Shown piece by piece: positions 15,326-37,077 of a stretch of 64,000 nucleotides of DNA (position 1 is the stretch's first letter; each line of letters begins with the position of its first letter). The position numbers and the translations under genes are program-made. The stretch comes from an uncultured Acidobacteriota bacterium (GTDB lineage: Bacteria; Acidobacteriota; Blastocatellia; Pyrinomonadales; Pyrinomonadaceae): NCBI GenBank assembly GCA_963849205.1, contig CAWKGP010000005.1:252406-316405 (forward strand). Direction: 5' to 3'. The notes under the pieces were generated by a model. The model saw nothing but the letters and a program-made list of their open reading frames with translations, was not told the origin of the DNA and made no database searches.

Positions 15326-15440
15326 GTAAAAGATTATACGGATATTTAGAAGATCAGCGCAGATCTGATTTATTGTAACGAATGACAGCGCCCTTGTAGA
15401 ATAACCCAGCATTTCTAGTTTCCTTCGAGGGTAAGCCTCC

Positions 15441-18400
15441 GTGCCCAACGTAAAACCCGCCCGCAAAGGCGTCTTCATCTCCTACGCACGCAGCGACGGC
15501 GAAGAGTTTGCCGATCGCCTGCGCCAGCGATTGCAGGCGGAAAATATCCCACTCTGGCAGGATCGCGTAGGCATGGAAGGTGGCCGCGACTGGTGGCTGC
15601 AAATCACCGAAGCCCTCGATCAAGTCGAGTTTATGGCACTGGTGATCACACCGAATGCTTTGAAGTCTGAGACGGTAAGGAAAGAATGGCGCTACGCTCG
15701 CCAGCAAGGTGTTTGCGTTTATCCCATCAAAGGCTTACCTGATCTCGACTTCGATAGTTTGCCACGCTGGATGCGGAGCGCGCATTTTTATGACTTAGAT
15801 CATGAGTGGCAAAAGTTCGTCAACGATCTCAACACCCGCTGTCAGACCAAGCGTGTCCCCTTCATGGTCGAAGATCTACCTGAAGGCTTCGTGCCACGTC
15901 CCGGTGAATTCGATCAGCTTCTGAACCTACTGATTGATGAGCGGCGAGCAGAACCAGTAGCGATCACCGCGGCACTGAGAGGCGCTGGCGGGTATGGCAA
16001 GACAACATTGGCTAGGGCGCTGTGTCATGACGAACGTATTCAGGAGGCATTCGACGACGGCATTCTCTGGATCACGCTTGGAGAAAATCCTGGCGACTTA
16101 ACAGGTCGAGTTGAAGATCTCATCGTTACACTCGGTGACGAGCGACCTGGATTTACAACACAGGATGCAGCGGTCAATCGCTTAAAAGAACTGTTGGCTG
16201 ATCGAGACATTCTGATCGTGATTGACGACGTTTGGGACCGGGCTCATCTCAATCCGTTCATACAGGGTGGCCCGCGTTGCGCTCGCCTGATCACAACACG
16301 GAACTTCGACACGCTGCCGGCTGGCACAGCAAAGGTGCAAGTCGATGCAATGCAGCAGGACGAAGCGACGATGCTGCTTACTGCTGGTTTGGATGAAACT
16401 TCACTTCAGAATGCAGGACTGACCCCGTGAGTTGAAAAAGCTTGCATCACGTTTGGGTGAGTGGCCGCTGTTACTTCGTTTAGTCAATAGTGCTCTACGC
16501 AATCGCATCGAAAATGACAAGCAATCGCCACGCGATGCAGTTACGTGGATCAACACAGCACTTATTAAACGCGGGCTGACTTATTTTGATGCCAGCAATT
16601 CCGAAGCGCGTAATGACGCAGTGGCGAGGACGATTGGTGTCAGTCTTGATCTGTTGAGCGTGAGAGACCGAGAACGTTACGGCGAGCTTGCGATCTTTCC
16701 CGAGGATGTTGTGATTCCCCTCTCTACGTTGGAAAAGCTGTGGGCCAAGACTGGCGGCCTGGATGAATTCGATGCCGAAGATTTATGCAGTCGATTGAAT
16801 CGTTTTTCTCTGTTGTGGAGTTACGACGCAAACCAGCGACGTATCCGCTTGCATGACGTGGTTCGAAATTTCTTAATTGAGCAACAACGAGGCAGGCTAC
16901 CGTCAATCCACGCACAACTTCTCGACGTGCATTTTCCAATAGCTTCATCCGGTTGGGCTGCAATGCCCGCAGACGAGCCGTATTTTTGGGATCATCTCGC
17001 GCATCATCTTGTCGAGGCCGGTCGCGGCAATGAGTTGGTCGCCACCGTCAAGGACTGGCGTTATCTGGTTTCTAAAACACTCATCCGCAAGTCGCTTGCG
17101 GTTGAAGCCGACTTGTTGACTGGTGAGAAGGTTGCAGCAAACGATGACGGACTGCAGTTACTACGGCGCAACTTCGTGAATTCAGGTCATCTCTTGAACC
17201 GATGCGAAAGCAGAGACGACGTCGAAATCACTTTGTTTACGCGCCTGCGACACCTGGATGATTTGAAGCCGCTCACGAGAACTCTCGAACAGCATCTGAA
17301 ACGTCCGTATATTCTACCGCTCCAAACACTGCCTGACTTACCCCATCCGGCGTTGGTGCGAACACTCAGCGGCCATGCCAGTACGGTACTGGGCTGTGCG
17401 GTGAGCGCAGATGGAGCGACGATCGTCTCGGCTTCTTATGATGGAACGCTAAAGATATGGGATAGGCGCAGTGGCGTGGAGCGCTTCACGCTAAGAGGTC
17501 ATTTGGCTCGGGTGCTGAGCTGCGCGGTGAGTGCGGATGGGGCGACGATTGTCTCGGCCTCGGATGATGGAACGCTGAAGGTGTGGGATGGACGCAGTGG
17601 AACAGAGCGCTGCACGCTGAGCGGCCATTTGGGTGGGGTGCAGGGCTGCGCGGTGAGCGCTGATGGAGCGACGATCGTGTCGGCTTCTTTTGATAAGACG
17701 CTGAAGGTGTGGGATGGGCACAGTGGAACAGAGCGCTTTACGCTGAGCGGCCATTCTGGTTGGGTAAATGGCTGTGCGGTGAGCGCGGATGGAGCGACGA
17801 TCGTGTCGGCTTCGGATGATGGGACGCTGAAGGTGTGGGATGGGCGCAGTGGAGGTAATCGCTTGACGCTTAGCCATTCGTTATCAGTGCGGGGCTGCGC
17901 GGTGAGCGCCGATGGGGCGACGATCGTGTCGGCTTCGGGGGATTCAACATTGAAGGTGTGGGATCGGTGCAGTGGAGTCGAGCGATTCACACTGAGGGGC
18001 CATGCGCGTGCAGTGCTGGGCTGCGCGTTGAGCGCGGATGGAGTAACGATCGTGTCGGCTTCGGATGATGGAACGCTGAAGGTGTGGGATGGACGCAGTG
18101 GAGCCGAGCGCTTCACGCTGAGTGGCCATGCTGGGGGCGTGGGTGGCTGCGCAGTAAGTGCGGATGGAGCAACGATTGCCTCGGCTTCGGGGGATAGTAC
18201 ATTGAAGGTGTGGGATGGGCGGAGTGGAGGGAACAGCTTTACGCTGAGCGGCCATTTGGGTGGGGCGCGTAACTGCGCGGTGAGCGCGGATGGAGCGACG
18301 GTCGTGTCGACTTCGGGGGATAGAACGCTGAAGGTGTGGGATGGGCGCAGTGGAGTGGAGCGCTTCACGCTAAGAGGTCATTTGGCTCGGGTGCTGAGCT

Positions 18401-19104
18401 GCGCGGTGAGTGCGGATGGGGCGACGATTGTCTCGGCCTCGGATGATGGAACGCTGAAGGTGTGGGATGGACGCAGTGGAACAGAGCGCTGCACGCTGAG
18501 CGGCCATTTGGGTGGGGTGCAGGGCTGCGCGGTGAGCGCTGATGGAGCGACGATCGTGTCGGCTTCTTTTGATAAGACGCTGAAGGTGTGGGATGGGCAC
18601 AGTGGAACAGAGCGCTTTACGCTGAGCGGCCATTCTGGTTGGGTAAATGGCTGTGCGGTGAGCGCGGATGGAGCGACGATCGTGTCGGCTTCGGATGATG
18701 GGACGCTGAAGGTGTGGGACGGGCGCAATGGCGCGGAACGCTTTACGCTGAGCGGCCAATCTGGTTGGGTAAAGGGCTGTGCGGTGAGTGCGGACGGAGC
18801 GATGATCGTCTCGGCTTCGTCTGATGGAACGCTTAAGGTGTGGGATGGGCGCAATGGCACGGAGCGCTTCACGCTGAGCAACCCAACGGGTTGGGTGCAG
18901 GGCTGCGCGGTGAGTGCGGATGGAGCGACGATTGTCTCGGCTTCGGATGACGGAACGCTGAAGGTGTGGGGCGGGCACACGGGCGAGAGCCTGTCGACGC
19001 TGTATGTCGATGGACCCCTAAATGGCTGTGCTTGCTCTCCCGATGGTGAAATAATCGCGGCAGCTGGTCCTCGCGGAATCTACTTCCTCCGCCTCGTGCG
19101 CTAA
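15441..19104 (+). CDS. TIR - NB-ARC (STAND NTPase) - 14x WD40 protein, split by a 1-nt frameshift into ORFs 15441..16430 and 16432..19104
   Basis: TIR: VFISYARSDGEEFADRL...ALKSETVRKEW. NB-ARC: P-loop GAGGYGKTTLA (15981-16013), Walker B ILIVIDDVWD, ARLITTRN, GEWPLLL, and MHD-like RLHDVV (16849-16857). These are followed by 14 42-aa WD40 units (GHxxxVxxCAVSADGATIVSASxDxTLKVWD). Confidence 0.85.
17350..19100 (+). repeat. In-frame tandem array of 14 x 126-bp WD40-coding units, including an exact 365-bp segmental duplication (17476-17840 = 18355-18719)
   Basis: GGCCAT/GGTCAT of the GH dipeptide recurs at 17371, 17497, 17623 and onward (period 126). The two listed blocks are identical by base-by-base reading, at an offset of 879 bp. 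Confidence 0.9.
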
Positions 19105-19390: not shown

Positions 19391-19966
19391 TTGATGAACG
19401 GACAAGCTAGAGCTTTGATCGAGTCCATGCCTAACGACATCGGGACTGAAGCGGTAGGTCCGCTCAGTTTCGACGAAGCGTTTACCCTCCATCACCGCGC
19501 CGTTTTTCGGACGGCTAGAGCTGTTGTTCGCGATTCGGCTATCGCCGAAGACGTGACGCAGGAAGTGTTTCTAAGACTTTATCGCAATCTCAACGCTACG
19601 CCAGGCGAGGAATTATTGCGGGCGTGGCTTTTGCGCGTGACTCTTAACGTCGCGCGAAACACCTTGCGGGGTCAAAGCCGCTCGATGGTTCGCGACAACG
19701 AGTATCACAAGACCACGGCAGACGGCTTTTTTGCCGACGCACCGGAAGAAGACTACGAACGCCGCATGGCTATCGAGGAAGCTCGCCGCGCGTTGGAGAA
19801 AATCAAAGAGCCGATGAGAAGTTGCCTGCTTTTGAAACAGCAGGGACTCTCCTACCGCGAAATCGCCACCACGCTGTCTCTAAAAGAGACAAACATTGGC
19901 AGCCTGGTAGCCCGCGGTCGCAAAGAGTTTGCGAGGGTTTACGGTAAGATCGGAGGCAAACGATGA
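19391..19966 (+). CDS. ECF-type RNA polymerase sigma-70 family factor
   Basis: Region 2 is AEDVTQEVFLRLYRN. Region 4 HTH is LSYREIATTLSLKETNIGSLVARGRKEF. Confidence 0.9.
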   Translation: MMNGQARALIESMPNDIGTEAVGPLSFDEAFTLHHRAVFRTARAVVRDSAIAEDVTQEVFLRLYRNLNATPGEELLRAWLLRVTLNVARNTLRGQSRSMVRDNEYHKTTADGFFADAPEEDYERRMAIEEARRALEKIKEPMRSCLLLKQQGLSYREIATTLSLKETNIGSLVARGRKEFARVYGKIGGKR

Positions 19967-20861: not shown

Positions 20862-21971
20862 TTGACAAAGAAGTTGTTCGTAGTCTGTGCAGTAGTCGCC
20901 CTCATACTCTCTCTGGCAGGTTCCACCCTAGCTCACGACGAGAAATCAGATACAAAACCGGGCGAAAAGGTGGAGCGCTCGCTCGTTGTAGACGCCGGGG
21001 CTACGGTCACTCTATGTGTTGCCTCCGGAACACTTCAGGTGCGTGGATGGGAAAAGAGTGAGATACGCGTTCGTTCCCTCGACGCCACGCAGATCGACTT
21101 TCGACGCATCGACAAAATCAAAGATAAGCCGCCCAGTCGAATCGACGTTGTGGTGCTCAATAAAAGTACCGGCGTCCGTCCGAAGTTTGATTGCCAGGCC
21201 ATTGCCGACGTAGAGATGGAAGTTCCTGCGGGCGCAACCGTCCAGGTGCAGACTCGTGACGGTGATATCGTCATCGCGGGTGTGGCAGGCGCTTATGCGG
21301 GATCTCAAAACGGCGACATCGCGATCGAGCGTGCGACTAAACTCGTCGAAGCAGGCAGTGTTGGCGGCAGTATTGTATTGAAGGACTCGACTGGTCGAAT
21401 AAATTTGAGCTCGGCGGGTGGGGGCGTTGAGGCCAGTAACATTCGCGCCGCGAGCGAGGATGACACTTTCGACGTGGGCACCGTGAGTGGTGACATTCAA
21501 CTGGATCGCGTCAGTAATCCCAAAGTAACAGCAAAGACTGTTAACGGAACCATGATTATGACCGGGCCTCTGGCTAAATCAGGCTGGTACGGGTTTACCA
21601 ACATGACGGGAAACATCATTTTGGCAATGCCACACGATGCGTCATTCCAGTTGAATGCTAAAGTTTCTGACAGGCACCACATTGTTTCTGAGTTCAATTT
21701 GAAGTATCTGAGTGATGCGACTCCGCCACCGCCACCCACCGTAATCAGGCCGAGGACTCCTGAAGCCAAAGGCAAGACTCCCGAAATCAAGGGAAAGACG
21801 CCCACTCCGCAGCCAATGCCAAAAGGGGGGCCCATAATCGCGCCGATCGTGGTTCAGAAGCCAACGCCGGCGCCTTACGTGCTCCGGCGTGTCAGTGCGG
21901 TCTGTGGATCCGGAGACGCCACGATATCCATCGCCTCTTTCGGCGGCACAGTCCGCCTCAAGAAAATTTAG
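20862..21971 (+). CDS. DUF4097-like beta-strand repeat protein (putative adhesin), secreted, Pro-rich C-terminal region
   Basis: Signal peptide, repeated GDI-x-I/L strand motifs (RDGDIVIAGV, QNGDIAIERA, VSGDIQLDRV, MTGNIILAM), and PPPPPTVIRPRTPEAKGKTPEIKGKTP. Confidence 0.65.
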   Translation: MTKKLFVVCAVVALILSLAGSTLAHDEKSDTKPGEKVERSLVVDAGATVTLCVASGTLQVRGWEKSEIRVRSLDATQIDFRRIDKIKDKPPSRIDVVVLNKSTGVRPKFDCQAIADVEMEVPAGATVQVQTRDGDIVIAGVAGAYAGSQNGDIAIERATKLVEAGSVGGSIVLKDSTGRINLSSAGGGVEASNIRAASEDDTFDVGTVSGDIQLDRVSNPKVTAKTVNGTMIMTGPLAKSGWYGFTNMTGNIILAMPHDASFQLNAKVSDRHHIVSEFNLKYLSDATPPPPPTVIRPRTPEAKGKTPEIKGKTPTPQPMPKGGPIIAPIVVQKPTPAPYVLRRVSAVCGSGDATISIASFGGTVRLKKI

Positions 21972-24907: not shown

Positions 24908-27490
24908 ATGAAGGCCGCATTGCTCAGCACTGCTCTGATCTTACTCTGCTGTGCCGTGGTCCATTCACAGACTCCAACCCAAACACCAACTCCACAACCA
25001 TCACCCGTCGCATTTACCAGCGAAAAAGTCACCGAAAAGACAACGCCAACGGAAACTGCACCACTCAAGACCGGCAAAGCTGCGCTTGTCTTGCCGCCTG
25101 AAAAGGCGAATCCCGTAAAAGCTGTTTTGTTTGCAAAGCCACCCGTAATCGACGGAAAGCTTGACGACGAAGTGTGGAAAACGGCGGTGGTGCTGAAAGA
25201 CTTCTATCAGATCCAGCCCGGCGACAATCTGATTCCGGAAAATCGCACCGAAGTCATGCTCGGTTACGATTCGCGGTATCTCTATATCGCTTTCCACTGT
25301 TACGACGATCCCTCGAAGGTTCGCGCCAACATTCCCAAACGCGATCAAATCTGGGACGACGACTACGTCGGTATTCTCTTTGACACCTTCAACGATCAGC
25401 GACGTGCTTACGAGTTTGACTTCAATCCGCTCGGTGTTCAGGCAGATGGGATCTGGACAGAAGGACAAGGCGAAGACTTCAGTCTCGACCTGGTTATGGA
25501 GTCGAAGGGAATGGTCACGAGCGATGGCTACACGATCGAAGTCGCGATCCCGTTCAAGTCGCTGCGTTATGTTGCGGGTAAAGACAAGTTGTGGGGAATC
25601 CATTTCTGGCGCCGCACCAAGCGTCTGAATAATTCGCTCGACATGTGGATTCCGATGGACCGCGACAAAAACAGTTGGCTGGCCCAGGCGGGCCATCTGA
25701 CCGGTCTCGAAGGTATATCGACCGAACGAACTCTCGAACTGATCCCGAGTTTGACTATCTCAGAAACCGGCAAGCGAAAGAGTGCGCTCCCATTCAATGC
25801 GAGAGCCGGCACTCCCGATCTCGGACGCTTTGTGAACGAGCCGATAGATCTCGATCCGGGCTTGACCGGCAAATACACGCTCACGCCGACAGTCACGCTC
25901 GACTTCACTCTGAATCCGGATTTCGCGCAGGTCGAGTCGGACCAGTTAGTAGTCACCGCGAACCAGCGCTTCCCAATCTTCTTTGAAGAGAAGCGACCGT
26001 TCTTCCTTGAAGGCAACGACATCTTTACCACGCAGATCGCCGCGGTTCACACACGCGCGATCGTCGATCCGGACTACGCCGTGAAACTCACTGGCAAACT
26101 GAATCGAAACACGTTTGGAGTGTTGCTGGCGTCCGACAATGCTCCCGGAAATTTCAATGAAGACGATCGAACCAATCCAAATGTGTTTCCCGGGATTCAG
26201 AGACTAGTCGATAAGAACGCCGCGGTTGGTATTCTGCGATTGAAGCGCGACATCGGAAAGTCTGACTCGTTCATTGGATTTCTGGCGACTTACCGTCGGT
26301 TTGTTGATGAGTACAACGAGCTGGGAGGATTTGACGGTCGCTTCCGCATCGACAAGCAAACCACCTTTAGTTGGCAAGTGCTCGGCACTCACAGTCGCCA
26401 TCGATTCTTCTTTCCTGAAGAAGGCCAGGTTCGCGACGCCAAGCAGAACGGTTTTATCTACGCGATCGATTACAACCAAAGCGGCCGCCACTTTGGCCAG
26501 CAGTTTTCAATGGTCGGCCGCACGCGTTACTACACCGCGGATGTCGGTTTCAATCGACGGCCCAATACCAACAATCCCAACTGGTTCATCCGCTACAACT
26601 CGGAGCCCAACGCGAAAGCCAAACTGATCTCGTGGCGCGTTTACACAGACTTCAACGCTAACTTCGATTGGCAGGGCCGTTCCCAAAACTTCAATAACGA
26701 AACACAGCTCCAAATACAACTGCGCCGGCAGACTTATCTGGGCGTCGGCGTTGACAAAGGTTATGACCGCGTTTTCGAAAGCGAGTTTGGACCAAAGCGA
26801 CAACCGGGTTCGAATTGTGTGGTCGAAAATACTTGTACGTTTGCAGGAGACGACAACGAACGATCGGCGCCGACGACGGGTCTCTATTTCTTCGGCGGTT
26901 CGACTCCCAGCAAGAAGTACAACTTCAATTTCTTCTTGAACCACGTTTGGGGCGCGATGGATTTCGATTTCGGCGCCGGACCGAAATTTCCGCGTGTGAG
27001 TCAGCCGGCGCTGGCTGCACGTCAGGCTGCTGATGCCGGACTTTGCAATACGATCCCGGAGCCCGCTGTTTGTCGTTCACCGCAGGATCCTGGACCAGGT
27101 GATTTCTGGCATTTTGATGGTGGCATCACCTATCAACCGACAAGCGCACTCAATGCGCGATTGAGTTATATCAAAGAGCGACTTACACGTTACGACACCG
27201 GCCGGCTCGCATTCGACCAGAACATTGTTTCGCTCCGCACTACGTACCAATTCACACGCTTCATGTTTGCGCGTGGTCGCGTCGATTACGACACGATAGC
27301 GTCGAATGTCAAAGGACAGTTTCTGTTGGGTTGGACTCCCAATCCGGGCACGGCGTTTTACGTTGGCTATAACGATGATCTGAATCGGAATGGATTCAGT
27401 CCATTTACGGGGCAACTTGAACCGGGCTTCCGTCGTAATGGAAGAACGTTCTTCATAAAGATGTCTTATTTATTCCGTCGCAGTTTTTAG
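24908..27490 (+). CDS. Secreted CBM9-like / DUF5916-type large beta-barrel-like protein
   Basis: Signal peptide. N-terminal module PPVIDGKLDDEVWKTAVVLKDFYQIQPGDN...YLYIAFHCYD. The long C-terminal part is rich in aromatic-terminated strands and ends in ...FIKMSYLFRRSF. Confidence 0.75.
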   Translation: MKAALLSTALILLCCAVVHSQTPTQTPTPQPSPVAFTSEKVTEKTTPTETAPLKTGKAALVLPPEKANPVKAVLFAKPPVIDGKLDDEVWKTAVVLKDFYQIQPGDNLIPENRTEVMLGYDSRYLYIAFHCYDDPSKVRANIPKRDQIWDDDYVGILFDTFNDQRRAYEFDFNPLGVQADGIWTEGQGEDFSLDLVMESKGMVTSDGYTIEVAIPFKSLRYVAGKDKLWGIHFWRRTKRLNNSLDMWIPMDRDKNSWLAQAGHLTGLEGISTERTLELIPSLTISETGKRKSALPFNARAGTPDLGRFVNEPIDLDPGLTGKYTLTPTVTLDFTLNPDFAQVESDQLVVTANQRFPIFFEEKRPFFLEGNDIFTTQIAAVHTRAIVDPDYAVKLTGKLNRNTFGVLLASDNAPGNFNEDDRTNPNVFPGIQRLVDKNAAVGILRLKRDIGKSDSFIGFLATYRRFVDEYNELGGFDGRFRIDKQTTFSWQVLGTHSRHRFFFPEEGQVRDAKQNGFIYAIDYNQSGRHFGQQFSMVGRTRYYTADVGFNRRPNTNNPNWFIRYNSEPNAKAKLISWRVYTDFNANFDWQGRSQNFNNETQLQIQLRRQTYLGVGVDKGYDRVFESEFGPKRQPGSNCVVENTCTFAGDDNERSAPTTGLYFFGGSTPSKKYNFNFFLNHVWGAMDFDFGAGPKFPRVSQPALAARQAADAGLCNTIPEPAVCRSPQDPGPGDFWHFDGGITYQPTSALNARLSYIKERLTRYDTGRLAFDQNIVSLRTTYQFTRFMFARGRVDYDTIASNVKGQFLLGWTPNPGTAFYVGYNDDLNRNGFSPFTGQLEPGFRRNGRTFFIKMSYLFRRSF

Positions 27491-27573: not shown

Positions 27574-27598
27574 GTTGACTTCGTGCACAACGCACTCT

Positions 27599-30080
27599 AT
27601 GCGAATTAACAATTTCTCGCTGGTCATAACGCTGATCCTGTGCGCTATGGTGACTGCGACCGCGCAGACAGCATCGACACCCACGGCCGCTATCGTCGTT
27701 CCGGAAGAAAAATCAAAACCCGTCACTATCCCGAAATTCGATAAACCGCCAACGATCGATGGCAAGCTCGATGAAGAAGTCTGGCAGAACGCCGCAGTGC
27801 TGAAAGACTTCTATCAGATTCAACCCGGCGACAACACTCCTCCTTCAAAACCAACGGAAGTTCTCATCGGGTTCGATCCGAAGTTTCTCTACATCGCATT
27901 CAAAGCCACAGACGAACCCGACAAAGTCCGCGCCACAGTCGCGAAGCGCGACAATATTTTTCAGGACGACTACGTCGGCTTCATGCTCGATACCTTCAAC
28001 GACAAACGTAAAGCCTTCGAAGTTTTCTTCAATCCCCTTGGGATTCAGGGCGACGGTATCATCACTGAGGGACGTGGTGAAGACTTCAGCGTCGACTTGT
28101 TGATGGAATCCAAAGGCATCATTCACGAAACCGGCTTCAATGTTGAGATCGCAATTCCGTTCAAGTCACTGCGATTCGAAGCAGGCAAAGGAAAAATGTG
28201 GGGCGCGCATTTCTTTCGACGCATCAAGCGCTTCGAGAACGAGCTCGATTCGTGGATGCCTGTTTCTCGTAGCATCGACAGCAATCTCAGCCAGGCAGGA
28301 CATCTGACTGGACTCGAAGGAATCCCGGTGGAACGGACGATCGAACTGATTCCGAGTGTGACCGTTTCGCAGAACAGTCGCTTCGTTCCGTCTTTCGGTG
28401 GCGTTCCGCGCGTAAATGATCCGGGCCGCATTGTTAATGAGCCCGTCGGTCTTGATCTTGGATTGACTGCCAAATTCATTCCGAGTTCGGCTGTCACAGT
28501 AGATCTCGCAATCAATCCTGATTTTGCTCAGGTTGAAGCGGATCAGCTTGTCGTAACTGCGAACCAGCGTTTCCCGATCTTCTTCCCCGAGAAACGACCG
28601 TTCTTTCTCGAGGGCATCGATATCTTTCAAACACCGATCACCGCCGTTCACACGCGCGCGATCGTCGATCCCGACGTAGCTGTGAAGACGACCGGAAAGA
28701 TAGGTCGCAACACGTTTGGATTAATGGTTGCAAGCGACAATGGACCAGGAAATCTCAACGCCGACGATCGAGGCAATTTGAGTGCGTGTATCGATCGTCG
28801 TGCACTCGATCCACGTGTTACCTGTAACAACGAACGTTTCATCGATAAGAACGCATACATCGGCGTCCTGCGACTCAAACGCGACATCGGTAAGGAAAAC
28901 TCCCTCGGCATGATCGCCACGAGTTACAACTTTATCGACAAACACAATCAGGTTTTGGGAATCGACGGTCGCTTTCGGCTCGACAAACAGACCACGCTGA
29001 GTTTTCAGACTCTGGGAACATCGTCGCGCAACTTCTTCTTTGATCCGAACGACGGAGAAACCCGCTATCGGACAGGAAATGGCTTTGGCTACACCACCAG
29101 TTACAACGTCTCGGGTCGTAACTGGGGTTGGGAACTCTACGGCGAAGGTTTCACGCAGGATTTTCGTGCCGACGTTGGCTTCTTCCAGCGCACCAATTCA
29201 AACTTCAACTACGGCTTTCTTCGTTACAACTCGGATCCTAATCCAAAGAAGAAGATCATTTCCTATCACGTTCATACCCTTACTCATTTGGATTACGACT
29301 GGCAGGGCCGGATGTACACGTGGGAATCGGAGAACCTGGTCGAGTTGCAGTTGCCGCGCAATAGTTGGGTAGGCATGTGGTGGGAACCGGGATATGAGCG
29401 GCTATTTGATCATGAGTTTGGTGCGACGCGTGAAGCCAAGCCGTGCAATCCTTTCTCGGTCACAAACAAATGTACCTTCTACGGCGAGAGTAACGAGCGT
29501 TCTTCAAACAAGCAGCATTTATCGTTTTATGCGGGCTCGAGCTATAGCAAGAAGATTCAGTTCAATGGTCAGGTGACTCAACGTTGGGGGCACTTTGATC
29601 TCGACTTTGGCAACGGCGACAAGTATCCGCGAGTAAGCCCTGCGGCTTTGGCTCTTGGGTCAGTTGGCGCCTTTGGATCCGGGTCGTGGCAGTCTGCTTC
29701 AGTTCAACGGCAGTATCACTTATCAGCCAACGAATGAGCTGCGTACGTCGTTCAGTATCAACTCGCAACGTCTGCGACGTTACGACACCGGCCGCGTCGC
29801 CTATCGGATTAACATCCTGACTCTTCGCGGCACGTATCAGTTCACGAAAGCGACCTTCGCGCGACTGATCCTCGACTACAACACACTCAATTCTAGATTA
29901 CGGTCGCAGGCGTTGTTGGGCTGGACGCCGAGTCCGGGCACCGCGTTCTACGCCGGTTACAACGACGATCTGAACTACGCCAGCCCGCATCCGTTCACAA
30001 CCCAGCTCGTCCCCGGCTTCCGTCGCAACTCGCGCACCTTCTTTATCAAGGCGTCGTACCTGATCCGTAAGGGCTTTTAA
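27599..30080 (+). CDS. Paralogue of the preceding CBM9/DUF5916 protein, interrupted by a 1-nt frameshift (ORFs 27575..29737 and 29655..30080)
   Basis: Collinear similarity to 24908..27490 (PPTIDGKLDEEVWQNAAVLKDFYQIQPGDN, NPDFAQVEADQLVVTANQRFPIFF). The C-terminal strands GSITYQPTNEL...FIKASYLIRKGF continue in the +1 frame. ATG 27599 gives a signal peptide. Confidence 0.8.
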
Positions 30081-34778: not shown

Positions 34779-34839
34779 TAACCGCGGATTTTCGCGGATG
34801 AACGCAGATGTGCGTTTATCCGCGTAAATCCGCGGCTTA
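34779..34839. repeat. Hairpin repeat, family E (CGCGGAT / CGCAGAT units)
   Basis: taaccgcggattttcgcggatgaacgcaga tg tgcgtttatccgcgtaaatccgcggctta. It lies between convergent genes and overlaps the aldolase stop codon. Confidence 0.85.
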
Positions 34840-35613
34840 TTCCTTGTAGTTCGCGCCCATTCGATCGAGCTTTCTCAACAGCCCCGGCCAAACCAATCGC
34901 CCACCACCACCCTGCGTGACCACCGCTTCCTGCGCTTTAATCTGCCCGAAGATCTTCGGATCAATCGGTACCAGTTTCACGCCGCCTGACTGCGCCATTA
35001 TCTGAATACGGCACGCGCGCTGTAGCAGAAACATCGAGAGGAACGCGTCTGCGACCGTTCTCCCAACAGTCAACAATCCATGGTTTCTTAAAATCAAGAA
35101 AGTCTTCTTGCCAAGGTCTGCGACCAGGCGCGGTTTTTCTTCATCGTTCAACGCGAGACCTTCGTAGTCGTGATAACCAAGCGACGCCAAAACAAAGAGC
35201 GACTGTTGCGAAATCGGCAGCAAACCATCCTGTTGTGCTGACACAGCGATACCGTGCTCCGTGTGCAGGTGCATAACACAAAGCGCATCCTCGCGCGCCG
35301 CATGCACCGCGCTGTGAATCGTGAACCCGGCCGGATTGATGCTGTACTCGGAATCCATCACGATCTTCCCGTCGAGATCAACTTTCACCAGACTCGACGC
35401 AGTGATCTCTTCAAACATCATCCCGTAAGGATTGATCAGAAAGTGATGTTCCGGACCAGGCACGCGCGCGGAGATGTGCGTGAAGACGAGATCGTCCCAG
35501 CCGTAGTCCGCAACCAGACGATATGCAGCGGCAAGATCAACGCGGACTTGCCACTCTTCCGGAGAAACCAGCTCACGAACATTCGCTCGCTTTACTTGTT
35601 CAGGGGCGCTCAT
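34837..35613 (-). CDS. Class II aldolase/adducin family protein
   Basis: ATG 35613 follows the TAA of the upstream gene by 2 nt and has AAAGGA upstream. The 258-aa product has WQVRVDLAAAYRLVADYGWDDLVFTHISARVP and CVMHLHTEHGIAVSAQ (metal-binding His pattern). Confidence 0.85.
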   Translation of the reverse strand: MSAPEQVKRANVRELVSPEEWQVRVDLAAAYRLVADYGWDDLVFTHISARVPGPEHHFLINPYGMMFEEITASSLVKVDLDGKIVMDSEYSINPAGFTIHSAVHAAREDALCVMHLHTEHGIAVSAQQDGLLPISQQSLFVLASLGYHDYEGLALNDEEKPRLVADLGKKTFLILRNHGLLTVGRTVADAFLSMFLLQRACRIQIMAQSGGVKLVPIDPKIFGQIKAQEAVVTQGGGGRLVWPGLLRKLDRMGANYKE

Positions 35614-35615
35614 AT

Positions 35616-37077
35616 TTATCCTTTCATCTCCTGCTGAAGGTCTGCCGGTTCCGGCATGCTCAGAACCTCTTCCCATCCAGACACATCGACGCGCATGCGT
35701 TGGACCAGATCGTCTCGAAGTGTCCGCAGCGACGCACTCAGTTGCCGTGGATAATTCTCGATGTCGGCGAAGCGCTGGCGTTGTTCTTCCACAAAAACCT
35801 TTTGCTTCTCGATCGACGGGATCGACGAGTGTTGTCCGTTTTCCCAGAAGGGAACCAGCAGTCGATCGACTTGAACAGCGCCCGGAATCTCGACTTTCAT
35901 CAATGTCGAGCCCGATGACGTCGCCGACGTACATTCCACGTTCGTCCGTGCCGCGAAACAACTGCAGCATTCCCGGCAGCGTAATCTTATCTTCTGAGTT
36001 CGATGCTTTGAGTGTCGGCAGCCCCCTCATAACGCATTGTTTGAAGATCACTCCGGCAACTGCCGGAATCTCGCTCGACAATTTCGTTCCGATGCCAAAG
36101 CCGGCGACTTCAGGAAATTCGGCCACGATCTTTTTGACTTTCTCAACCGTGAGATCGCCGGTGAGATTCGCTCGCAGGCCCGTCAATCCGTTGGCGGCAA
36201 AGAACCGCAAACACCACTCGCCGAGTTCAGCGAGATTTCCGGAGTCCACGCGGAACCCTTTGAACGCGCGACGCCTCGCTGCAGTTGAAGTCGCCGCCAT
36301 GGCCGCGTGAACCGCGCCCGTGTAAACGTCAATCGTGTCGAGCAGGAGCGTTGTGCCGTTCGGATTCGCGTCGAGCCAGCGCTCGAAAGCCACTTGTTCG
36401 AAGTGTTTTGGTTTGCCCGTGCGCGGCTCGATCTCCGGCTGGTCCATGTACTCGATGTAGGCCTGTTGCCAGTAGTGAGCTTCGGTGCCGACGGCGGGAA
36501 TGTCGAGCCGGTGTGCCGCTTCGAGATTCGAAGTGTCGTTGAAGCCACCAATGAATGCGTAAACAGCAATATCGACGGCACGCTCGATGTCGCCATTGCG
36601 ACGTAGAGAGAAATCGGACAGCCAGCGTTTCTCTCCGGCGGCCATGCGAAACTGCATTGCCGTACTCGCAGTCGTCATCGGCAGATCGAACGCGTGCTCA
36701 AACTTGATTTCCTGCGCCTGCGTCAGTCCGAATGCACCAGTGATGTCAGCAAATGGCTCGTGCGCAAAAACGATCGTTCCGGGGCGCACGGCTCTGATTT
36801 TGCCGACGAACTGAATGTCTTCAATTGCTTCCGCGAAGAGTTGCAGACCACCGCGATCCTGTTCGAGGAAACGAAGACGCGGACGGTCGATCTGGCTGTC
36901 GACAAGCAGGCGGACCAGTCGTTCATGGCCCAGACACGGGGCGAATGGGATCTTGCGTTGTGTTACGTAGAAGGTGGCTTCCGCATCGCTGAGTCGTTGA
37001 TCGTGCAGGCGTGTGCAATCCTTGAACGACGCATCGCCCATCGCGGCGTGGTAGCGATCGATATTCAGCGTTCCCAT
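35616..37077 (-). CDS. pncB: Nicotinate phosphoribosyltransferase-like protein, interrupted by a 1-nt frameshift near 35895 (N-terminal part in the frame of listed ORF 34837..37077, C-terminal part is ORF 35616..35939)
   Basis: N-terminal part has LSDFSLRRNGD, GGFNDTSNLEAA and IPAVGTEAHYW (NAPRT-type pattern). After GDVIGLDIDE the long ORF becomes low-complexity R/S-rich, while the +1 frame gives VEIPGAVQVDRLLVPFWENGQ...IEKQKVFVEEQRQRF up to TAA 35616. Confidence 0.7.

Follow-up and report, generated by a model that had tools for sequence, protein, structure and literature searches.

The subject of this analysis is a single gene with a repetitive WD40 array in the genome of an uncultured Acidobacteriota bacterium of the family Pyrinomonadaceae (assembly GCA_963849205.1). 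It lies on the plus strand at positions 15441–19104 of a 64,000-nucleotide stretch of contig CAWKGP010000005.1 (positions 252,406–316,405), which we call the window and whose coordinates are used throughout. Judged from its sequence, the array forms the C-terminal sensor of a TIR + NB-ARC + WD40 protein of the STAND class with about 1,219 amino acids. An earlier, sequence-only reading had left out the N-terminal half of the gene, and the frameshift at 16423–16426 that divides it into two open reading frames (ORFs) was thereby missed. The features of the gene are as follows.

15441–16430, plus strand: ORF1, the N-terminal part of the receptor (329 amino acids, from the translation), ending at a TGA created by the frameshift.
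15471–15731 (approximate), plus strand: TIR domain, ORF1 residues 11–97 (Pfam PF13676, TIR_2, 68.5 bits at a cut-off of 28).
15912–16385 (approximate), plus strand: first two thirds of the NB-ARC domain, ORF1 residues 158–315 (PF00931, 61.7 bits at a cut-off of 23.5).
16423–16426, plus strand: frameshift site, a CCCC run with one extra base, found by nucleotide alignment with orthologues.
16432–19104, plus strand: ORF2, in the +1 frame relative to ORF1, with the NB-ARC remainder, the linker and the WD40 blades.
16432–17370, plus strand: first 313 codons of ORF2, the NB-ARC/Apaf-1-like remainder and a helical linker (from the translation).
17371–19002, plus strand: 13 WD40 units of 126 bp (42 codons) or, in units 4 and 13, 123 bp (41 codons), all highly similar.
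17476–17840, plus strand: copy 1 of a 365-nt repeat, from codon 36 of unit 1 to codon 31 of unit 4 (propeller 1, blades 2–4).
18355–18719, plus strand: copy 2 of the 365-nt repeat, from codon 36 of unit 8 to codon 31 of unit 11 (propeller 2, blades 2–4).
19003–19104, plus strand: 14th (closing) blade, divergent and truncated, with the stop codon; the blade itself (19003–19101) reads YVDGPLNGCACSPDGEIIAAAGPRGIYFLRLVR.

The first blade directly follows the end of the helical linker, LPDLPHPALVRTLS. Tandem Repeats Finder delimits a 126-bp array at 17385–18970 with 12.6 copies, 80% matches and no indels, and the Pfam WD40 profile (PF00400) scores 395 bits over 13 stretches. The mean amino-acid identity of the units is 75%; it falls to 25% at seven variable codons and rises to 86% over the remaining 34. 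This unit-to-unit identity is unusually high and places the blades among the highly internally conserved repeats. The almost invariant core that had been ascribed to all 14 units is present in the 13 units at 17371–19002 and is not shared by the divergent, truncated 14th blade, the C-terminal end of which (...GIYFLRLVR) is nevertheless kept in orthologues and forms the last strands of propeller 2 in the structural model described below.

At least 1,457 homologues were found, the best of which are single continuous proteins. At least 12 are syntenic orthologues, located between the genes for protoporphyrinogen oxidase, HemH and HemE and an extracytoplasmic function (ECF) sigma operon; these 12 come from three GTDB genomes (Acidobacteriota or Pyrinomonadaceae) and nine soil-metagenome contigs. 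Eleven of them are complete and intact ORFs of 1,176–1,228 amino acids, mostly with 14 blades, and the remaining one (L061) runs off its contig. Amino-acid identity between orthologues is 75–86% in the receptor N-terminus and 78–96% in the flanking proteins, and the synonymous sites of single-copy genes have come close to saturation among these genomes, the proportion of synonymous differences (pS) being 0.5–0.75. No conspecific relatives were found in the genome and metagenome collections, where the best matches have 83–86% amino-acid identity. Since the gene occupies a fixed chromosomal site between housekeeping genes, its arrays lend themselves to comparison among genuine orthologues, an opportunity that defence genes seldom offer.

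The codons of a unit are numbered here from the G of GH. In the window array, entropy peaks at codons 3, 4, 5 and 7 (after GH), 23 and 25 (beside a conserved D) and 36, with weaker variation at codons 33, 34, 37 and 39, in agreement with the variable positions listed in the sequence-only reading. Across the clade (153 units taken from 14 genes), the highest entropy is that of codon 23 (3.64 bits, 18 residue types), followed by codons 7 (3.31), 5 (3.26) and 25 (2.66) and then by codons 4, 3, 42 (2.13, partly register shifts) and 36. Codons 5, 7, 23 and 25 form two pairs around the conserved V6 and D24. In HET-D and HET-E of Podospora, four positively selected codons (7, 9, 25 and 27) flank codons 8 and 26; codons 5, 7, 23 and 25 of the bacterial unit correspond to these four and have the same geometry. 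The fungal repeats have also been classified by seven positions (10, 11, 12, 14, 30, 32 and 39), which would become positions 3, 4, 5, 7, 23, 25 and 32 here if the numbering is offset by 7, as we infer.

An AlphaFold2 model of the last 601 residues (mean predicted local distance difference test score, pLDDT, 86.7) predicts two seven-bladed propellers at residues 19–306 and 323–600 of the model, connected by a linker of low confidence. The GH...WD signature and the D-H-S/T-W tetrad of WD40 repeats are present, and both propellers are closed in the prediction. The best solved match of the sensor is 2YMU, the WRAP domain of Nostoc punctiforme (E = 3.9e-141 by sequence, 49% identity in the fold search), followed by the designed WRAP-T derivatives and then by Apaf-1. 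By DSSP on the model, strands a, b, c and d occupy unit positions 6–11, 17–22, 26–31 and 37–42, respectively; codons 3–5 lie in the d–a loop, codon 7 is the second residue of strand a, and codons 23 and 25 flank the Asp of the b–c turn. The top-face location that had been raised from the sequence alone is thus borne out in the predicted propeller for six of the seven variable sites, which are found in the d–a loop, at the start of strand a or in the b–c turn, and the hypergeometric probability that at least six of the seven fall on nine top-face positions is 1e-4. In the definitions of Wu et al. (2012), R1 is read from (V/L/I)-R1-R2-(V/L/I), R1-2 stands two residues before R1, and D-1 is the residue before the tetrad Asp; codons 5, 7 and 23 are R1-2, R1 and D-1, which are published top-face hotspots of WD40 proteins.

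Alignment of the units at the codon level, as envisaged in the sequence-only reading, gave Nei–Gojobori ratios of nonsynonymous to synonymous change (dN/dS) of 1.2–1.5 at the seven variable codons versus 0.07–0.2 at the scaffold codons, by a counting method that ignores recombination and with sites that were partly pre-selected; the set includes L001 and L002, which played no part in the choice of the variable sites. The proportion of nonsynonymous differences (pN) at variable codons relative to scaffold pS was above 1, with a bootstrap lower bound also above 1, in 7 of 12 arrays, and below 1 only where scaffold synonymous sites are saturated. As a control, we considered diverged paralogues, in which the variable codons are about equally variable (3.1 vs. 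2.8 bits) and the remaining positions of the unit have twice the variability (1.49 bits vs. 0.73 bits in this clade). It follows that the special feature of the clade is a homogeneous scaffold from which the contact positions escape: the top-face positions are as diverse as in fully diverged WD40 proteins and, in most arrays, outpace the synonymous sites of the scaffold.

Lineage-specific synonymous codons occur in nearly all units of an array (GAC14, GCC21 and AAA28 in L002; GGG15, TCC22, GAC24 and GGT35 in L063), and the nearest neighbour of a unit comes from the same genome for 56 of the 153 units, with 10 expected. Positional orthology of units between species was rejected, because the best matches are rarely found at the same position. 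Taken together, these three observations show concerted evolution, in which the units of an array exchange sequence by gene conversion and the scaffold is kept uniform. Homogenisation is partial, with a scaffold distance of 0.18 within and 0.21 between genomes. Of the two properties of the array that had been proposed for comparison, repeat order is not conserved between species, and repeat number is nearly constant, unlike that of the fungal genes. In the 14-blade arrays of L059 and L060 the synonymous sites of the scaffold are saturated (pS 0.68–0.69) and the blades have diverged further. In some lineages (L059, L060 and L003), homogenisation seems to have weakened or come to an end, and the clade appears to span the range from homogenised to differentiating arrays.

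Synonymous change in the array is slow, as seen when 17371–19002 is compared with 15441–17370 and with the loci L001, L002 and L057–L065. The consensus unit differs between species at 11–21 of 126 nucleotides, and the between-genome scaffold pS is 0.35–0.45 in 8 of 10 orthologues, with a net synonymous divergence of 0.02–0.15, far below the N-terminal half of the receptor, where pS is about 0.6. Codon bias was rejected as the cause (codon adaptation-like index of 0.74 vs. 0.69–0.82 in other genes). The array has the highest GC content in the window (0.58; 0.66 vs. 0.52–0.56 at third codon positions), and purely GC-biased conversion is unlikely, given that GAT, GGA and GCT codons have stayed conserved. 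The repeat scaffold may be preserved across species in its nucleotides and not just in its protein. Second-order selection that favours homology between repeats and so keeps the array able to recombine, or a recurrent exchange of blade cassettes between co-occurring species, might account for this; in both cases a receptor with a syntenically fixed place in the core genome would serve, within a single bacterial gene, as an evolvability device like the fungal HNWD system. We regard this as a speculative proposal with little probability. No WD40 genes that could act as exchange partners were found elsewhere in the window.

Long ORFs of up to 289 amino acids run through the array on the minus strand (17499–18368, 18370–18978 and 17491–17877). 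They were rejected as genes and are most likely a by-product of a repeating unit without antisense stops.

The two copies of the 365-nt repeat, offset by 879 nt (7 × 126 minus 3), are identical over their whole length, as the sequence-only reading had reported, and 365 nt is the maximal exact run between them. The edges of the repeat are sharp and lie inside units, and the flanks fall at once to the ordinary unit-to-unit divergence. With a unit divergence of about 20%, the chance of such an exact match is approximately 0.8^365, or about 4e-36. The next-longest exact internal repeat in the window has 42 nt, the longest ones in orthologous arrays have 71 and 107 nt, and L065 contains two adjacent blades with identical protein sequences. 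The repeat is best read as the most recent gene-conversion tract of the array, non-reciprocal and about 2.9 units long, by which blades 2–4 were probably copied between the two propellers, either of which may have been the donor. The alternatives initially named, recombination or conversion on the one hand and an assembly artefact on the other, are still the right ones, and the first has been narrowed to gene conversion since the blade number stays at the family-typical 14. The shorter exact tracts and the identical blades of L065, observed in independent orthologue assemblies, suggest that such events are common in the clade.

Two rival explanations bear on the array itself. One is that the array, like Nostoc WRAP, arose by very recent amplification, which alone would make its blades similar, and that the variable positions are simply the least constrained ones, with no diversifying regime. 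The WRAP domain 2YMU is indeed the best solved-structure match, such propellers, frameshifted ones included, are described in published work as being continuously amplified and decaying, and the same positions are the most variable ones in diverged paralogues. However, the scaffold dS between units within arrays is 0.3–0.5, compared with none in WRAP, so the array is not a just-amplified propeller of that kind; the same 14-blade array and consensus occur in at least 12 orthologues, the single-copy regions of which are near synonymous saturation; the lineage-specific synonymous sweeps point to continuing homogenisation rather than to one burst; and nonsynonymous change at the variable codons exceeds synonymous change in the scaffold. 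We consider new amplification very improbable. The other explanation concerns the 365-nt duplicate, which might be an artefact of assembly or polishing produced by reads mis-assigned between units or by units mis-joined. Highly conserved WD40 arrays are documented as unreliable in short-read assemblies, homopolymer indels occur in some long-read assemblies, and the tract far exceeds any exact repeat in the orthologues. Yet the frame is open and the blade number is the 14 typical of the family, the edges of the tract are sharp and within units, and exact tracts of 71 and 107 nt and two protein-identical blades are found in independent orthologue assemblies. Moreover, the rest of the 64 kb consists of clean, long ORFs, about 46 of which look intact, with full-length domain matches and a coding density of 92%, which indicates that the assembly is not generally error-ridden. 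An artefactual origin of the duplicate is in our estimation unlikely.

The array is preceded by a complete set of NB-ARC motifs. Reading the translations, we identified Walker A (GAGGYGKTT), Walker B (LIVIDDVWD) and sensor-1 (RLITTRN, with TTR) in ORF1 and the GxP-type (GEWPLLL) and MHD-type (RLHDV) motifs in ORF2, which together with the profile match assign the domain to the NB-ARC/AP-ATPase clade. The repaired N-terminal 642 amino acids match Apaf-1 chains, which are among the best solved-structure matches by sequence, over residues 164–548 (E of about 1e-16), as well as the NB-ARC domains of plant CNL and RNL proteins. The nearest solved structures of the TIR domain are TIR-SAVED (7QQK), SPARTA TIR-APAZ, AbTIR and SARM1, and by sequence similarity the domain appears closest to the NADase TIRs of defence systems. 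Residue E82, in the motif VRKEW, is conserved in at least 90% of the family alignment; we take it to correspond to E642, the catalytic Glu in WVHKEI of SARM1, and NADase activity is predicted.

In the window copy, the NB-ARC domain is not a continuous polypeptide owing to the +1-nt frameshift, whereas every complete orthologue examined reads through. In the nucleotide alignment, L001, L002 and L003 each show a single-column gap at 16423–16426, and deletion of one C at this site restores ...GLTRELKKLASRLGEWPLLL..., in line with the family. Programmed +1 frameshifting at CCG-TGA-G was rejected, since the orthologues have no shift at this site. Re-pairing from CCG to CGU is poor for a programmed site, and the C run here has only 4 nt. 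The insertion in CCCC means either that the gene was inactivated very recently or that the sequence is wrong at this point, homopolymer indels being a known artefact of some long-read assemblies.

Overall, we consider it likely that the locus represents a single-gene, Apaf-1-like bacterial STAND (NLR-like) receptor with a homogenised array, hypervariable top faces, an immune-type role and a 365-nt conversion tract. The WD40 sensor with a conserved core and hypervariable patches of the fungal HET-E/NWD type, which had been recognised from the array, is upheld and is now placed C-terminal to TIR and NB-ARC domains. Immune function, as well as the mechanism, is suggested by analogy with Apaf-1, plant and animal NLRs and the bacterial Avs/bNACHT proteins. 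Going by these families, the top faces would bind a protein ligand, most plausibly of a phage or another invader; binding would release autoinhibition and allow the NB-ARC module to oligomerise; and the clustered TIR domains would then switch on NAD+ cleavage, leading to growth arrest, death or signalling. Recombination of the repeats may create new specificities.

Several points weigh against this interpretation. The PADLOC models match only the TIR part of the receptor as a defence protein: ORF1 has TIR-level matches in PADLOC-DB, with E = 8e-4 for the TIR-NLR model over residues 11–85 (75 residues), and ORF2 matches only the WD-like part of HEAT-ARM_XIII, so that neither is a full-length match. 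The window copy is frameshifted and may not be functional, and the 365-nt identity could result from consensus polishing. A dN/dS of about 1.2–1.5 at pre-selected sites is compatible with relaxed constraint too, and gene conversion breaks the assumptions of the dN/dS estimator. The variable codon 36 is located in the c–d loop of the model, on the opposite face. Blade number barely varies, 10 of the 11 complete orthologues having 1,216–1,228 amino acids and one having 1,176. Finally, the neighbours are housekeeping genes with no evident mobile element or defence island, and the position is conserved across species, which is unusual for anti-phage genes.

Some of these points are also the basis of two further explanations. 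The gene might be a decaying pseudogene with a genuine frameshift; no protein would then be produced, and the pattern of the array would be a remnant. This is a serious possibility, to which we give somewhat less than even chances. One extra base relative to three orthologues produces the premature TGA, no other of the roughly 47 ORFs of the window is obviously broken, and disrupted propeller-STAND genes are reported to be common. On the other hand, the two halves have open frames, with no motif damaged over about 1,219 codons, so any inactivation must be very recent; the insertion is in a homopolymer, the classic site of error; and the evolutionary pattern of the array is common to intact orthologues and hence independent of the status of the window copy. 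The receptor could also be a housekeeping or regulatory STAND scaffold, such as a signalling hub, with WD40 faces that bind endogenous partners. Its fixed position by haem biosynthesis and ECF sigma genes across many species, the lack of adjacent defence genes or mobile elements and the nearly constant blade number speak for such a role. However, the TIR is closest to defence NADase TIRs (TIR-SAVED, SPARTA TIR-APAZ, AbTIR and SARM1), an endogenous partner would favour conserved contact residues, yet these are near-random here, and the contact residues are saturated in a protein whose N-terminal half shows an ordinary rate of evolution. A housekeeping role therefore seems improbable to us, and an immune-type receptor remains the preferred explanation.

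The genes around the receptor are, on the minus strand, those for protoporphyrinogen oxidase, ferrochelatase (hemH) and uroporphyrinogen decarboxylase (hemE) and, downstream of the receptor, those for an ECF sigma factor, an anti-sigma factor and DUF4097 proteins. A consensus scan gave a candidate promoter between the divergent hemE and receptor genes, about 40 nt before the receptor start codon:

15373–15402, plus strand: candidate sigma-70-like promoter, TTGTAA, 18-nt spacer, TAGAAT (weak).

The promoter scan found 3 sites with 2.3 expected by chance, and neither the promoter nor the terminator scan was above chance. Rfam and tRNA scans of the window found nothing. An adjacent partner or effector gene was considered and rejected, because the variable inserts in orthologous loci encode PEP-CTERM, CopG-like and FAD-binding proteins. 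No partner gene is conserved beside the receptor. The insertions, which occupy the gaps that separate hemE, the receptor and the ECF sigma gene in several orthologous loci (L001:6853–9683, L065:3299–4072 and L065:9724–10491), encode PEP-CTERM-tailed proteins; that of L001 also has an ORF for a CopG-like antitoxin, and L065 has one for an FAD-binding protein. The window has none of them.

Some other observations concern the neighbourhood itself. The synonymous sites of the ECF sigma gene (19391–19966) are unusually conserved between species (pS 0.13–0.29 vs. 0.4–0.75 in neighbours). A 21-nt tandem repeat with 2.3 copies is located at 21755–21803, within a DUF4097 gene (20862–21971), and the ORFs at 24908–27490 and 27575–29737 are tandem paralogues, each with CBM9-like and DUF5916 domains. 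An unusual ORF of 746 amino acids on the minus strand (34837–37077), 16 kb from the TIR gene, fuses a nicotinate phosphoribosyltransferase-family domain (NAD salvage) to a class II aldolase domain.

Among known systems, close counterparts are the HET-D/HET-E/HNWD genes of Podospora anserina. These genes also have 126-bp (42-amino-acid) WD40 units that are highly similar within an array and undergo concerted evolution, with variation at four codons around two conserved positions, and at neighbouring positions, on the interaction face, and their products, too, are STAND NTPases that carry a death or effector domain at the N-terminus. The gene of the window is nevertheless not a member of this fungal family: the organism is bacterial, and the protein has NB-ARC and TIR in place of NACHT and HET, which makes it an analogue of the HET-E family. 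Unlike HNWD, the gene is a single locus, with no exchanging paralogue family seen in the window; its blade number is almost fixed at 14, in contrast to the polymorphic number in the fungus; and its units have about 80% nucleotide identity, compared with up to 100% in the fungal arrays; and it shows no repeat-induced point mutation (RIP).

Among bacterial proteins, WRAP of Nostoc punctiforme (Npun_R6612) has the same 14 WD40 blades in two seven-bladed propellers at the C-terminus of a STAND ATPase, and the cyanobacterial STAND/TIR operons share with the window gene the TIR association and the frequent disruption by frameshifts. WRAP blades, however, are nearly identical without synonymous differences, which indicates very recent amplification, whereas the array here has been maintained across species, and TIR, the nucleotide-oligomerisation domain (NOD) and propellers are in one polypeptide rather than in two coupled genes. 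Apaf-1 has the same succession of NB-ARC, a helical region of the HD1/WH/HD2 type and tandem WD40 propellers. It differs in having CARD or caspase association instead of TIR and fully diverged blades. The Apaf-1 propellers have 7 and 8 blades, compared with the 7 and 7 predicted for the window receptor. The bacterial Avs and bNACHT proteins and the TIR-NLR of PADLOC follow the same effector–NOD–repeat-sensor logic, and the TIR resembles defence TIRs. The sensors of these antiviral STANDs, however, are mostly TPR-like, and the window gene lies outside a defence island.

The kind of system is thus already known. Some bacterial NLR-like/STAND proteins carry highly internally conserved WD40 or TPR repeats, for which diversification of the fungal type has been proposed in the literature, and recent surveys list bacterial Apaf-1 orthologues with beta-propeller sensors among defence-associated STANDs. 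By its sequence, the locus is a further member, in Acidobacteriota, of this group of internally conserved STANDs, WRAP and Apaf-1-like receptors. Together with its 12 syntenic orthologues, it offers concrete, comparable evidence from this phylum for hypervariable contact-face codons on a scaffold homogenised by conversion, with a fresh 365-nt conversion tract that appears to have been caught in the act. If its function is confirmed, it would be a tractable bacterial model for the origin of new specificities in repeat sensors and a further TIR-coupled Apaf-1-like receptor outside cyanobacteria.

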